Source of the DNA: Pseudomonadota bacterium
GTDB lineage: Bacteria > Bdellovibrionota_C > UBA2361 > OMII01
Direction of reading: 5' to 3'
NCBI GenBank assembly: GCA_038134595.1
Contig: JAYPVM010000008.1
Coordinates: 1,461-65,460, forward strand
DNA length: 64,000 bases
The position numbers and the translations under genes were made by a program. Position 1 is the first letter of the stretch, and each line of letters starts with the position of its first letter. Shown here piece by piece: positions 2,000 through 11,965 of this stretch. The notes beneath the pieces are model-generated. The model saw only the letters and a list, made by a program, of their open reading frames with translations. It ran no database searches and was not told where the DNA came from.

Positions 2000-2084
2000 G
2001 GTCGACTAATCAAGGGAACAAGGAGTCTCAGGAAGCTGCCTCAAATTCGCAAATCGTTATATCGATTACGAGATCTTTGGAGTA

Positions 2085-2228
2085 ATGCCTTTTGGGCTTA
2101 ATGGAAAAACTGCTCTCGCCACAGTTGCGAGCTATGGACTAGGGTATGCGTGCGCAAAGCAGCTCTGGCGAGAAGGCGCTAGGATCGTTATATCTGCTTG
2201 CGTGATAAATATCCTATCGAGTCAGTAG
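2085..2228 (+). pseudogene. Truncated N-terminal remnant of a short-chain dehydrogenase/reductase
   Basis: The 47-codon ORF reads MPFGLNGKTALATVASYGLGYACAKQLWREGARIVISA.., which matches the SDR beta1-Gly-motif-alpha1-beta2 pattern (TGxxxGxG appears as TVASYGLG). It stops after beta2 and the rest of the fold is absent. Confidence 0.45.
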
Positions 2229-2303
2229 CAACAGAGAGCTCCTCTGAAACAGGAAACTGAGTTCGAAAGGATGAATAGCCAGACGTATAAAATAGTAACT
2301 CGA

Positions 2304-2576
2304 TTACCTATCTAAAGCTAGGCTAAGCCGTCGTAACTTTTCACCCTTATCAATCGATGTATCTGCTAAAAATTCTTGAAGTAGCTGCGCCGCATCCACT
2401 TCTACTATGAAAGCGCGTCCGTCGAGTGGTGGGGTCCGAGAGGCCTGTTCTTGTGTGTTTGACGAGTAGCGACTGCGAAGGTTACCTAAAGCCTCCTGAT
2501 AAGAAGTGTTAGAAGGTAAACTAGCAGTTGGCGGAGAATCAATAGTCGGCAAGGTTAGAGCACCAAGACGCCGCAA
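2304..2576 (-). CDS. Hypothetical 90-aa ORF. It overlaps the upstream ORF by 38 nt in another frame and may be the frameshifted 3' part of the same gene.
   Basis: TTG start with AGGAG about 11 nt upstream. The C-terminal KGEKLRRLSLAL repeats the motif seen twice in 2539..2988. Confidence 0.3.
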   Translation of the reverse strand: MRRLGALTLPTIDSPPTASLPSNTSYQEALGNLRSRYSSNTQEQASRTPPLDGRAFIVEVDAAQLLQEFLADTSIDKGEKLRRLSLALDR

Positions 2577-2988
2577 CCGGCGACAACTCTCCTGTCTGAA
2601 GGATTTTTAGGATGGCGTTCTTCTCTTCATTCGAAGCGAGCACTATCTTGTCGACCACACTTAGAAAGACCGTTAATTGCTTTTTATCGATACATGTTGT
2701 CAAAACTGACTGTATTCGAGCCAACTTTTCCCGATCAGAGACATTCGAATCGTTGAGCAATCGGCATAAGGCTACAGCCACAGAGTTATCTCTCGACTCG
2801 AGATGTGTAAGAATGAGCCCTCCGACCCCGTTCAGGTCAGGCAAATCTGAGGAACTGCGGGAGCTTGTTGTGTTAGTGGAAAGTATTGTAGTCGCGGCGT
2901 CAGCATCGTCTATAAGCCAAACAGACGCATGCAGAGCCTTTGCTGCATGATGAATCGATACATCTAGTTTCCGAGAATCTTCCAACAT
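2539..2988 (-). CDS. Hypothetical acidic 149-aa protein, divergent from the giant ORF
   Basis: Long ORF with no recognised domain. Contains SDREKLARIQSVL and NEEKNAILKILQ motifs. Confidence 0.4.
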   Translation of the reverse strand: MLEDSRKLDVSIHHAAKALHASVWLIDDADAATTILSTNTTSSRSSSDLPDLNGVGGLILTHLESRDNSVAVALCRLLNDSNVSDREKLARIQSVLTTCIDKKQLTVFLSVVDKIVLASNEEKNAILKILQTGELSPVAASWCSNLADY

Positions 2989-8619: not shown

Positions 8620-9651
8620 CTATTTGGGGTGCCGCTTTGGATAGATGCTATATCTTCTAAGCGCCTCACATAAGGACATTTCAGTAGGAGTTTTGTTATG
8701 CCCCATAGTGTGAAGTAGAGCATTGAGGATAGTAGATTTACCGTTTTGATCCACTCTGTAAAGAACCATAGCCTCCCTATCCTCATCGCGCACGGTCTTT
8801 GCTAACGTACCCCCTGGGGACTCGAGGTCACTTAGTTCAAAATGATTGTAGATAGCCCCCACAGCGACCCGTGCCGTTGTATCGTTAATGATTATGTCTG
8901 TGAGTAAATTTTTCCACGTTGGGAGGTGTCGTCTATCTGGAACCAGCAAACTTACTAGTCGCTCGATTTGAATTGTGGCTCCACCCTCTTGGCCGTCTGT
9001 TGTAAGATTAGGATCATAGCCTTCGGAAGTGATTGCGTCGCTGATCTTGCTTTTTAGACTGCGGACCTTGGCATCTCTCACACTCGTAGCGTTGCGGTGG
9101 GCTGTTGTAATCTCTTCAAACTCTTGCCTATGATTCGCCAAGATTGTACTTAGTTTGGCAACGGCATCTCTAAACGACATCTCTCTGATAGAAGTTTCAA
9201 TCTCTTTTTCTCTCGCTAAAAGTTTGGGGACCTGTTCTGCAGCGATGTCAAAATCCTCGACTGAAACTGTGCCGATGATATGGGCAAAAATGCCGCTTGA
9301 GTAGCCGTGTTGGATGTACGCACCGTAGGTATTATTGTGGGGAACTTTGAGCAGCTCATCCTTGAGATCGACTACTCCCAATTTAATACCTAGCAGTAGA
9401 ATACTTCATCTGCGGTCATTGTAGGATGTGGAAGGGTTAGGACATTCTATCGATGCAACCCATGAATTCACCGTCTGAGGGGAAACAAGTTGCGCGACCT
9501 GTTCCGGTTCTTGATTTGGCGAGCGTGCGGCACCCCCGCTACCGTCTTGAAAACCGCCGGGGCTCTGGTAGGGTATGTGTGCTGGAAACGTTTGAGCTAT
9601 CATATTCAATATACCTGGTTTTTTGTGCGAATAGGCCCTACAAACCTGCAA
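8620..9651 (-). pseudogene. HTH-like ORF (9406..9651) and 253-aa ORF (8620..9381) in the same frame, separated by one TGA (9406-9408). This is either an interrupted gene or two genes. The C-terminus carries a P-loop-like remnant.
   Basis: I verified the frame by hand: ..NDRR-TGA-SILLLGIK-(TTG)GVVDLK... The upstream part contains EQVAQLVSPQTVNSWV, which is XRE/Cro-like. The downstream part ends FELSDLESPGGTLAKTVRDEDREAMVLYRVDQNGKSTILNALLHTMG. That resembles the N-terminal beta-strands plus Walker A of SMC/OLD/AAA_15-type ATPases but lacks the first Gly, and the ORF ends 26 codons later. The TTG at 9381 has no convincing RBS. Confidence 0.4.
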
Positions 9652-9993
9652 CGGATATCACGGGAGTGCCTAGGATATCCTTACAGACTACGTCCTTGCC
9701 TTTTTGATTGTGAGAACCAAAAGGGTTAAATGCAAGATAATTCAGCAAAAATTAATTCGGGTAATGGTGAGTATAGGTCGGTGTGTGACTTAATGTGAGG
9801 AGATTTTTTATAGTCTTTGACAACCTCTCGGTATGACGAGGAATGTATGTGTAAGATGAGGCGGTAATTCCCCAAGAACCACGATCTAAATCTCGTTTAT
9901 CCAAATCAACGCATCGTGTCTTCCTTTGTATGTTAGGTCTTCTGTTTCTGATAGGATCAAGACAGAACCTGATTATAAGCACTAGGAGTCTCT

Positions 9994-11520
9994 ATGAATA
10001 GTCTAGCAGCAGGATTGGCAGTAAATGGCAATGGGAGTATCTCATTGGATGATCAGAGTTTATCTTCCTCTGTTTCTTCAGCGTTTCGAGAGGCGGAGCT
10101 AGTTACCTGTAATACGTTGGCACGGATGGCTGATAGCGTTGATGCTGGCTTGAGCTCGCTTCAGTCCGCTGTCAATGTAGTTGTTCCGGCGACAGCGCGG
10201 CTTTTTGGGGCGTTTTTCTTACCTGAGGCCATCAGTCGTCCATTGTCAAAGGTGGTAGGAGTTTCAACAGGCGTTGCATCTTCTCTAATTCGGGGCTCGT
10301 TTTCTGCTGCTCTACAAACGATAACCTGCGGGGCCCCTGCATGGAGCCAAATGGCTCGGCACAGCATGGCTGTATCGTCAGTTGTTGATTCATACAGGCA
10401 CGAAGGGGACAGCGCAAGTTTCTTAGCTCGCGGTATTGCGCAATGTGCGGCCTCAGAAAGTAGGCGGGAGACACTTACAAGCTACATCGAGACGTATCGT
10501 GTGATGGAGGGAGCCGAAACTACTAGTGAGGTGCATAAGGCTTGTGTCGCTAAGTTATCTGCTATCGAAGCAACGCTTGGAGTCTGTAATTCCCTTTCGC
10601 AGGTTAGGGCTGTGTTACATGACCGCAAAAGATTTGTCAGAGAGAATCCCGAGATAGTTATGGAAATTGCGGAATCTGTGGCCCAAAACATCATAAAGGG
10701 TGTAGGGAGCTTTTATCAGCAGAAGTACGGTCGTGTACTTGGTGGGTCGGAGTTAGCTATTCCGGAAACACAACGAATGATTCTGCAGGAGCGAGTCGCC
10801 GCAGAGTTAAAGAGTGTATTCGATAGCGAGTATTCGAGTGCGGATGTATCAGCCAAGCTTACCCGCATAGCTGGCCATTTAAACTCGCAGTTTGGCACAT
10901 ATCAAAGTGCTGTACGGGGTTTGCTTGGTACGTTCGGCGGGGCAGTGCTGTATACTGAAGCTGGCGCCGCCGTAGCGGCGAGTTTTGCTGACCGGGTTTT
11001 CGGAGCACTTCATAGCGCCGGAGGCTGGGCGGTGGGATTGTTGGATTCAGCGTGCCAATCTGTCTCTGGATTTATCATAGACACTGTGTCAGATGTTCAA
11101 CAACGATTTGCAAATTATGTCGGGGGTTTGATGAGGCAAGCCTACGACTCAGGGGTTGAGTCTGTAACGGGAGCCGTTGATACCGTCGTTTCTCCTCTAT
11201 ACGAGTCTGTAACGGGACCCGTTGATTCAATATTTGAGGAAATCTTTGGTGGCATCGAGTTTCGTCCTAAACCATATTTATACCGTCAAGCAAAGCAAGT
11301 TGTCACGGATCCCTTAACCGGAAGCGAAGTTTGGGAGTGTCGATTCGGATGTCACAATTCCTCGAGCACTCAGGCGTTAGGTGAGGGGTTCTCATTAAGC
11401 GACTTTGCATCTCCGAGACTGACAGACAAGGACAGATTTAAAAATCTTGGTGGGCAGATTCTGGACGAGACAGCGTTAGAGAGACTAAAGGACTTTTTAG
11501 ATAATAAGGCTCAAGAGTAA
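9994..11520 (+). CDS. Orphan 508-aa protein, Ser/Ala/Gly-rich with Gly-zipper-like hydrophobic stretches
   Basis: ATG with AGGAG 6 nt upstream. No competing ORFs of comparable length. Internal repeat ESVTGAVDTV / ESVTGPVDSI. No signal peptide and no domain I recognise. Confidence 0.75.
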   Translation: MNSLAAGLAVNGNGSISLDDQSLSSSVSSAFREAELVTCNTLARMADSVDAGLSSLQSAVNVVVPATARLFGAFFLPEAISRPLSKVVGVSTGVASSLIRGSFSAALQTITCGAPAWSQMARHSMAVSSVVDSYRHEGDSASFLARGIAQCAASESRRETLTSYIETYRVMEGAETTSEVHKACVAKLSAIEATLGVCNSLSQVRAVLHDRKRFVRENPEIVMEIAESVAQNIIKGVGSFYQQKYGRVLGGSELAIPETQRMILQERVAAELKSVFDSEYSSADVSAKLTRIAGHLNSQFGTYQSAVRGLLGTFGGAVLYTEAGAAVAASFADRVFGALHSAGGWAVGLLDSACQSVSGFIIDTVSDVQQRFANYVGGLMRQAYDSGVESVTGAVDTVVSPLYESVTGPVDSIFEEIFGGIEFRPKPYLYRQAKQVVTDPLTGSEVWECRFGCHNSSSTQALGEGFSLSDFASPRLTDKDRFKNLGGQILDETALERLKDFLDNKAQE

Positions 11521-11965
11521 ATAGTGCGTCTTGGTACAAAGCGATTGCGCATCTCATACTCGGTTAAACGAGAGTTTATGTTAAAGGGGATGCGCACGTT
11601 GGATAGGCTCAAGGGTCACATTTGACAGCTTCGCAGAAGTTTCACATGCTCTTGACCATACCTGTTTGGCTTCCACCTCAGTCGGCAAGCCCTGTGGAGA
11701 TACAGATTGCCACCGATTGCCACCGATTCCGCCAGAGTTATGTTTGAGACAGGACTTTGCCGGTAGAAGCGGCTGGGAGATTTAGAAAATCTCAGAAAGC
11801 TGGGGTGAAATACAAATCGTTGGAAGACTCCCGAAAGTCTGCGAGGCTTTCCTGATTTTATAAGAGACATGTCTGGGCTATGCTGGCGGTAATTTAAAAG
11901 GGGTTCAGCTTCCTTCGCTACCGCCCCAGAACTAATCGTTGTACTCGCAAACTCTCAGGATACTC

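Follow-up and report, generated by a model that had tools for sequence, protein, structure and literature searches.

A rare M34 zincin–triple AAA+ protein in a variable, lineage-specific region of a Bdellovibrionota chromosome

We analyzed a 64,000-nucleotide stretch of the chromosome of an uncultured freshwater bacterium (the window; GenBank assembly GCA_038134595.1, contig JAYPVM010000008.1, positions 1,461 to 65,460, named Pseudomonadota bacterium and placed by GTDB in Bdellovibrionota_C), in which the original prediction had marked a segment of about 10 kb (2000–11930) as an accessory island: three intact long orphan genes among decayed ones, together a candidate undescribed conflict or effector module. 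Open reading frame (ORF) listing and translation reproduced the predicted coordinates of the intact genes, which encode a giant protein of 1460 aa (3461–7843, +), a HicA-like product of 126 aa (7856–8236, −) and a 508-aa protein (9994–11520, +). Around them lie an overlapping pair of ORFs of 90 and 149 aa (2304–2576 and 2539–2988, −), the remains of a 327-codon gene between the HicA-like and 508-aa genes, and, to the right, a 91-aa two-helix membrane protein (11966–12241, +) followed by an SDR gene (12316–13026, −). The remainder of the window is ordinary chromosome, with pckA, topoisomerase IV-like subunits, transketolase, mgtE and glucan phosphorylase. As detailed below, the anatomy originally described was largely right and the segment is accessory, while the count of orphans, the Gly-zipper and HTH/P-loop labels and the joint module did not stand. 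We think it probable that the segment is a fast-turnover region specific to its lineage, lying past a conserved gene block, whose genes are independent of one another and include one stand-alone M34/triple-AAA+ giant.

The giant begins with a variable region (residues 1–319; 3461–4417, +) that is rich in Ser and Pro, contains a coiled-coil-like stretch and is not conserved across the protein family described below. There follow an M34 zincin domain of the LF/Pro-Pro-endopeptidase type (4418–4924, +), with HEIGH at residues 405–409, a conserved Tyr and a third-ligand Glu; a degenerate AAA+ module, AAA0 (5048–5830, +); a CbbX/EccA-type module, AAA1 (5858–6550, +); a CbbX-type module, AAA2 (6578–7360, +); and a conserved Cys-rich C-terminal tail (7361–7843, +) that ends F.Y.CP[FY]CGG..S..C.Y ... 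W...[HN]S.KKP[WY]. Pfam places two AAA domains and ATLF on the protein, all above their cut-offs (ATLF at 39.6 versus 27.4 bits). In a PDB sequence search, residues 392–487 match LF with the HExxH, catalytic Tyr and third-ligand Glu aligned; the stretch RDYFRDTEQEFLAETF of the giant pairs with SYGRTNEAEFFAEAF of LF, which holds LF E735 and Y728. Over the full length of the domain, the family profile matches both LF and PPEP-1/Zmp1 (E ~1e-9), covering residues 35–197 of the 198 in PPEP-1. The third-ligand Glu is invariant in one family alignment (A2) and kept in most members of a second, 27-member alignment, in which HExxH is kept by 22 members and ATLF is matched by 15.

The ATPase modules differ in their state of preservation. 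AAA1 matches EccA1 (PDB 9lur, E=6e-21) and AAA2 matches CbbX (3zuh/3syk, E ~5e-18), and AAA_lid_6 lids accompany these two modules. The Walker A (GNPGTGKT) and Walker B (FIDExHQL, with FIDEFH in the window) motifs of AAA1 are invariant across the family, and this module has no aromatic pore loop. AAA2 (Walker A GGSGTGKT; Walker B LLIDE, with LLIDEA in the window) is mostly intact in the family, and its pore loop 1, EYVGQ in the window, reads [FY][VIL]G[QN] in nearly all members. AAA0 was recognized from a monomeric AlphaFold2 (AF2) model of residues 305–790 (predicted local distance difference test score, pLDDT, 82): Foldseek identified the middle part of the model as a third AAA+ module, with p97 D1, CbbX and RuvB as top matches. 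It lacks both Walker A, where the family has LDGE, and Walker B. The description of the giant as an intact M34-AAA+ protein is borne out, with an open reading frame and every catalytic motif (HExxH, Tyr, Glu, Walker pairs, pore loop) in place.

The giant is not an orphan. A full HMMER search with residues 1–790 against 1.84 billion representative sequences recovered a family of 38 representatives, 30 of them at E<=1e-10. Most members are 1150–2300 aa long, and homology extends from about residue 300 to the end. A word-indexed search with the full giant gave one 93% fragment and AAA-only matches, and the same kind of search with a family sub-alignment gave nothing; a scan of metagenomes using the family alignment yielded no more than 5 loci, since HE[IV]GHA, the one pattern that could be used, is unspecific; scans of viral contigs with the giant core and with the 508-aa protein were empty. 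Members are listed publicly as 'AAA family ATPase' or 'SpoVK/Ycf46/Vps4 family AAA+-type ATPase', and the named ones come from metagenome-assembled genomes (MAGs) of Archangiaceae and Myxococcaceae, in the Myxococcota, whereas the window belongs to the Bdellovibrionota. Among the three supposed orphans, then, the giant falls to its 38-representative family and the HicA-like protein to Pfam HicA_toxin, and only the 508-aa protein, with no homolog outside its own cluster in a word-indexed search, deserves the name.

At the loci compared, the giant has no fixed neighbors. Nine independent homolog loci (L093, L096, L100, L101, L103, L105, L106, L107 and L108; GC 39–71%) place it beside rpoZ-relA-mutL-miaA in L093, beside an acyltransferase, a DnaJ-domain protein and ribH in L096, beside a Ser/Thr kinase in L106 and beside a TetR-family regulator in L107. 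An all-against-all comparison of the neighboring ORFs at the nine loci found no shared family apart from a gene for the N-terminal region: in L093 this region is a separate 366-aa gene just upstream (7777–8877), and in L100 it is fused within a 1478-aa ORF (653–5086), an arrangement suggestive of an autonomous module. No called gene is on record for the 5.8 kb immediately downstream of the Archangiaceae homolog (L107:14377–20185). By tblastn, the HicA-like, 327-, 508-, 401/407- and 196-aa proteins and the membrane protein had no match at any of the nine loci. The intact genes of the island never co-occur outside one species, the very outcome that the original prediction had named as refuting it, and their co-occurrence within near-identical strains carries no independent weight. 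The proposal that they form one module therefore finds no backing from guilt by association: the nine loci lack the other genes and have no neighbor in common.

To place the segment among relatives, we located corresponding loci with the SPL protein, scanning one genome per species; the best matches (56–65% identity) were MAGs labelled Bdellovibrionota, with two labelled Bdellovibrionales and Pseudomonadota. By tblastn, the order of a nine-gene block, pckA-holA-SLT-mgtE-hydrolase-(glgP)-PNP-SPL-SDR, is kept in more than 10 Bdellovibrionota MAG loci, and synteny ends at SDR. In a sister species (L004), whose SDR is 97% identical and whose other core proteins are 66–95% identical, a PALP/ACT gene begins 6 bp beyond SDR. 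The same gene, 400 aa in relatives, lies 50–400 bp from SDR in L008 and L015, and in two further relatives 1.8–3.3 kb of unrelated cargo separates the two genes: L006 (11903–14937) has a PIN-domain toxin and a C39-like peptidase there and L011 (6802–8607) an unknown protein of 601 aa, and several proteins of these cargoes are unknown. Island proteins had no tblastn match after SDR in L004, L006, L008, L010, L011, L015 or L016, and the genes that follow SDR in relatives are found nowhere in the window. The 91-aa membrane protein is present in same-species strains and absent from L004, and so belongs to the variable region. Because the cargo after SDR differs from relative to relative, the island is lineage-specific and its site varies recurrently; judged by these gene orders, the interval between SDR and PALP/ACT resembles a hot spot where variable genes gather throughout the family. 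The segment is thus accessory as originally proposed, absent at this site from the sister species and six more distant relatives, carried by same-species strains, and not part of a core genome in conserved synteny.

Within the species, the island is changing gene by gene. Exact-sequence look-up found same-species contigs identical to the window (L001, L086 and L087), at 97–98% nucleotide identity (L088–L092) and at 93.5% (L002); these strains carry the island with strain-specific lesions. Comparison with sister strains confirmed the decayed genes reported earlier and exposed three inactivations in the window strain: a TGA, an 8-bp deletion and a 1.8 kb loss. The pair at 2304–2988 (−), suspected of a frameshift, is one species-restricted, Ser-rich gene, split by the 8-bp deletion at ~2565 relative to L092, in which a single frame of at least 196 aa (roughly 230 aa) is present; it has no Pfam, PHROG or PADLOC match. 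The TGA-interrupted gene (8620–9603, −) carries its in-frame stop at 9406–9408, where sister strains read Arg and encode a species-restricted protein of 327 aa; what is left in the window strain is a 253-aa remnant ORF (8620–9381, −) in frame behind an 81-aa ORF (9406–9651, −). We rejected recoding of TGA, which serves as the stop of 4 of 22 core genes.

The third lesion had been overlooked. At the junction 11520/11521, between the 508-aa gene and the membrane-protein gene, L088–L091 carry 1.8 kb more, with genes of 71 and 401 aa; the deletion in the window is clean, and no trace of the 401-aa gene was found anywhere in it. The L002 allele of that gene encodes 407 aa at only 64% identity, against 94–100% for core proteins. 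The N-terminus of the 401/407-aa protein (L088:5913–7118; L002:11492–12715) is extremely rich in Arg and Glu (RRDERQERRDDRRERLD...). Six-frame translation also located the claimed SDR stub, an N-terminal piece of ~48 codons with a degenerate glycine motif (2082–2228, +), whose match to adh_short is weak (E=0.0014, profile positions 1–30, under the Pfam cut-off). Strain by strain, genes are lost or broken while others persist. The spacers between the genes are long, as claimed, measuring 300–470 bp, or 612 bp when the 253-aa remnant is counted alone.

Nucleotide identity to L088 is mosaic: 97.9% over 6173–11199, 75% over the C-terminus of the 508-aa gene and 90.7% in the flank. The contrast between 97.9% in the island core and 90.7% in the flank indicates that the core was shared between strains more recently than the flank. 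Exactly where identity to the sister strain falls from 98% to 75%, the 508-aa gene contains a near-perfect, tandem-like internal duplication of 45 nt (11158–11226, copies at 11158 and 11203, encoding ESVTGAVD and ESVTGPVD), which may mark a recombination breakpoint. The duplication makes the product 15 aa longer here than the 493-aa alleles elsewhere, and its C-terminal 100 aa are hyperdivergent.

Rates of evolution set the island apart from its surroundings. By the Nei–Gojobori method, the ratio of nonsynonymous to synonymous substitution rates (dN/dS) against sister strains was 1.6 in the N-terminal part of the giant (65 nonsynonymous to 12 synonymous), 1.5 in its C-terminal part, 1.4 in the HicA-like gene, 1.2–1.9 in the 327-aa gene, 2.1 in the 149-aa ORF (2539–2988) and 0.66–0.85 in the 508-aa gene; the core genes SDR, SPL, PNP and glgP, compared with L002, gave 0.04–0.19. 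Between strains, the giant differs by 89 substitutions (75 nonsynonymous, 14 synonymous) with 0 indels and 0 stops, and 30 of the 75 nonsynonymous differences fall in its N-terminal region (residues 1–319). As indicative statistics, a random-mutation simulation gave P=0.027 for the lack of a stop and P=0.018 for 14 or fewer synonymous changes, and the amino-acid differences tend to spare columns that the family conserves (p=0.02). Substitutions are strongly clustered; at 5819–5887, for example, eight nonsynonymous ones follow in succession. A diversity-generating retroelement was considered as the source of the clusters and rejected, since those inspected show no adenine-specific change and no reverse transcriptase is among the Pfam matches of the segment. 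That a frame of 1460 codons has stayed open despite so high a dN/dS hints at diversifying selection.

The nearest known proteins each share part of the giant's design. With the M34 peptidases LF and PPEP-1/Zmp1 it has in common a complete catalytic domain, including HExxH, the catalytic Tyr and the downstream Glu ligand; LF and the PPEPs are secreted and stand alone or form toxin cassettes, whereas in the giant, which has no signal peptide, the domain lies inside the chain, between a variable N-terminus and the three AAA+ modules to which it is fused. Its AAA1 and AAA2 match EccA1 and CbbX, of the CbbX/EccA/SpoVK classical clade, at E 1e-18 to 1e-21, and the AAA2 pore loop aligns with the region of the CbbX pore-loop Tyr. 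CbbX and EccA, however, have one AAA+ module and no protease, where the giant family has three in tandem (the first inactive) together with the zincin and the Cys-rich tail. Like FtsH, the giant unites in a single polypeptide a zinc-dependent HExxH protease and an ATPase that has an aromatic pore loop. FtsH is membrane-anchored, universal and essential and runs from one AAA+ module to an M41 protease; the giant has the reverse order, an M34 protease and three AAA+ modules, and belongs to a rare, non-core family.

By analogy with FtsH-type AAA+ proteases, and given its membership of the CbbX/EccA clade, we propose that the giant would assemble as an AAA+ ring. AAA2, the sole module with a conserved aromatic pore loop, would grip or thread a target protein using ATP; AAA1 may serve as an ATPase or in assembly, and AAA0 would be structural. 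The fused M34 zincin would cut the engaged target, and the variable N-terminus may pick the target or a partner. Around this protein, the other island genes are gained, broken and lost between strains, three already being inactivated in the window strain.

Several observations weigh against the reading of the segment as a lineage-specific turnover region of independent genes around one stand-alone, fast-evolving giant. The protease and ATPase activities of the giant are predictions, and the taxonomic range of its family rests on two named MAG proteins and the window. The island dN/dS values come from one pair of strains, between which synonymous changes are few, and the core values from a different strain (L002); clustering, moreover, means that the substitutions are not independent events, so the statistics given for the giant are indicative only. 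The island genes are co-linear in three strains, which is compatible with a module. For the 508-aa protein, an AF2 model from 6 near-identical sequences was all-helical with a pLDDT of 35.6, a confidence too low for use. Finally, L086 reaches 1.4 kb past the window start (via a DUF2238 gene), and the window together with this extension ends before any gene that flanks SDR in relatives; with the left boundary outside the data, insertion is indistinguishable from rearrangement.

On a bolder reading, the giants would be ATP-powered proteases of a class not described before and would serve in conflict between organisms, be it predation, kin discrimination or defense against phage, with the N-terminus as a recognition module under diversifying selection and the nearby orphans as accessory conflict genes at a hot spot. 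We regard this as a tentative possibility, unlikely as matters stand. Conflict genes often evolve at dN/dS ~1 or higher, and in this respect the conflict-like character seen in the original prediction has something to it, although the single joint module that went with that character does not hold.

It is improbable, in our judgment, that the whole island is decaying, non-functional DNA whose long ORFs died recently and drift neutrally. Values of dN/dS close to 1, the three inactivating lesions and the SDR stub in the window strain, the long spacers and the internal duplication of the 508-aa gene are all what such decay would leave. The giant fits poorly: its 89 substitutions include no stop or indel, its synonymous changes fall below the neutral expectation, its differences avoid conserved columns, and its HExxH, Tyr, Glu, both Walker A/B pairs and pore loop are intact; the HicA-like gene, too, has kept its frame across a 6-nt indel between strains. 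From its pattern of change the giant appears to be a live, fast-evolving gene, possibly under diversifying selection, and some of the smaller island genes are, on our reading, drifting or dying.

We give similarly low credence to the idea that the island encodes secreted effectors, with the giant and the Ser-rich orphans exported into prey or host cells. The organism belongs to the Bdellovibrionota and two named family members to the Myxococcota, both of them phyla that include predators; the N-termini vary across the family, the substitution pattern looks diversifying, and the orphans contain much Ser and little Lys and have no signal peptides. An LF-like 'Tox-ALF metallopeptidase' has been catalogued as a toxin domain, mainly in toxins delivered by Photorhabdus virulence cassettes or extracellular contractile injection systems (eCIS), delta-proteobacteria included (Zhang et al. 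2012; PMC3482391). Yet neither the segment nor the surroundings of any giant homolog contain a secretion-system, chaperone or eCIS gene, and the homologs sit among housekeeping genes. The architecture is also that of neither a polymorphic toxin nor a likely cargo: the zincin lies N-terminal to three AAA+ modules instead of forming a C-terminal toxin cassette, the variable part is the N-terminus, Pfam found no trafficking domain of polymorphic toxins, and a protein of 1150–2300 aa with an AAA+ ring is unlikely to be secreted.

That the giant and the HicA-fold, 508-aa and 327-aa proteins work jointly as one undescribed defense or effector system seems to us decidedly improbable, although some of its ingredients are present. 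Gene order is the same in the window strain and in L088–L092, dN/dS is ~1 or higher over the island, and known defense systems pair an ATPase with a protease. PADLOC 2.0 matches on the segment are AAA-domain matches of the giant to DolB (E=3.5e-12), IetA (E=1e-6) and TRIP13, with none for the other six proteins, and hence, as had been expected, no complete named system. IetAS and Dodola (DolAB) share with the giant the logic of an NTPase coupled to an effector, but the giant has no IetS or DolA partner beside it, the matches cover the AAA domain only, and its homologs lie outside defense islands.

The toxin-fold component is genuine, if by a narrow margin. The HicA-like product passes the Pfam HicA_toxin threshold at 28.2 versus 27 bits, matches a 'toxin' PHROG (353, E=3e-7) and shares the KGGH..HPD core of PDB 1whz (E=6e-4), as the claim of a toxin-fold protein required. 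Compared with type II HicAB systems, however, it is twice the usual length (117–126 aa in total), has a Gly/Ser-rich, low-complexity N-terminal extension of ~50 aa and lacks an adjacent HicB-like gene; its neighbors are the giant, which is convergent with it, and the 327-aa gene 383 bp upstream, and neither has a HicB, ribbon-helix-helix or helix-turn-helix (HTH) match.

The remaining proposed members offer little to a shared system. The 327-aa protein has no Pfam or PHROG match and belongs to a 90% cluster of four members, all from this species. Its earlier 'HTH/P-loop' label lacks Pfam support: an Arf-like resemblance at NGKSTIL is non-significant (E ~0.1–0.2). We also considered and rejected two identities for it, a HicB-like antitoxin and a truncated small GTPase, the Arf P-loop likeness being non-significant and without continuation in other frames. 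The 508-aa protein is species-restricted and rich in Ser, Ala and Gly; a word-indexed search of 5.8 billion proteins found no homolog beyond its own cluster at >=85%, and PDB profile, Pfam, PHROG and PADLOC searches gave no match. It contains no GxxxGxxxG, only a small-xxx-small run at residues 81–105, and its maximal Kyte–Doolittle hydropathy over 19 residues is a borderline 1.5, so the 'Gly-zipper' description does not apply. The island genes other than the giant, the HicA-like gene and the 508-aa gene match no family library and form small single-species clusters where looked up. Against a joint system stand, besides these profiles, the restriction of co-occurrence to one species, the nine homolog loci that lack the other genes (with no relative of the 508- or 327-aa protein), the persistence of the rest in a strain that has lost the 401-aa gene by deletion and the 327-aa gene to a nonsense mutation, and the differing gene directions and long spacers, which indicate that the segment is not an operon.

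The composition of the segment is native. GC content is flat at 0.45–0.51 over the segment and the remainder of the window; by codon position the giant has 0.57/0.41/0.45 and core genes 0.57/0.42/0.45, and its codon usage is indistinguishable from that of core genes, so the segment is not recent foreign DNA. As originally noted, no integrase, transposase or flanking tRNA is present by Pfam and PHROG matches and tRNA search: a tRNA-Phe at 58141 is the single tRNA/Rfam match in the window. A remnant of a prophage, integrative and conjugative element or other mobile element is thus very unlikely, for although the segment varies among relatives and both the HicA-like gene and the neighboring ParB-like gene match phage PHROGs, it has no integrase, transposase or structural gene, no adjacent tRNA, no flanking direct or inverted repeat, core-like GC and codon usage, and no relatives of the giant core or the 508-aa protein in the viral contigs scanned.

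Some observations lie outside the segment. The 'ParB-like' gene (1613–1999) matches PHROG 17560, a phage family of unknown function, at E=3e-10, has no Pfam match at E<0.1 and contains a DGxHR-like motif, DGRVMDGMHR. Further left, positions 1–1000 have a GC content of 0.374 against ~0.47 and hold only short, odd ORFs without family match (8–253 and 279–509); this low-GC end may belong to the variable region described here or be a separate insertion. ORFs of 613 aa (32332–34173, −) and 321 aa (57016–57981, −) have no Pfam match, the former no NCBIfam match either, so family-less genes occur outside the flagged segment as well. A 550-aa protein (35350–37002, +) has a FliK hook-length-control domain (E=3e-18), from which the organism is probably flagellated, as expected of a Bdellovibrio-like bacterium. 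A 1067-aa protein (58363–61566, −) with weak transglycosylase and transpeptidase matches resembles an unusually long, divergent PBP1.

As a system the segment fails; it is an ordinary hypervariable patch of chromosome. The strain comparison provides a clean, small example of genes with dN/dS of 1 or higher beside core genes near 0.1. The giant defines a rare and apparently unstudied architecture, in which three AAA+ modules of the CbbX type and a Cys-rich tail are joined to an LF/PPEP-type protease; we found no description of an M34-AAA+ fusion in the literature, where searches turned up only the 2012 survey of polymorphic toxins. Its target might be a protein of the cell itself, of prey or of phage. 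Homologs in Archangiaceae and Myxococcaceae MAGs give hope of an ortholog in a cultured myxobacterium, in which the giant would be testable. If it is a true ATP-driven protease, it would represent a new design among the small set of AAA+ proteases.

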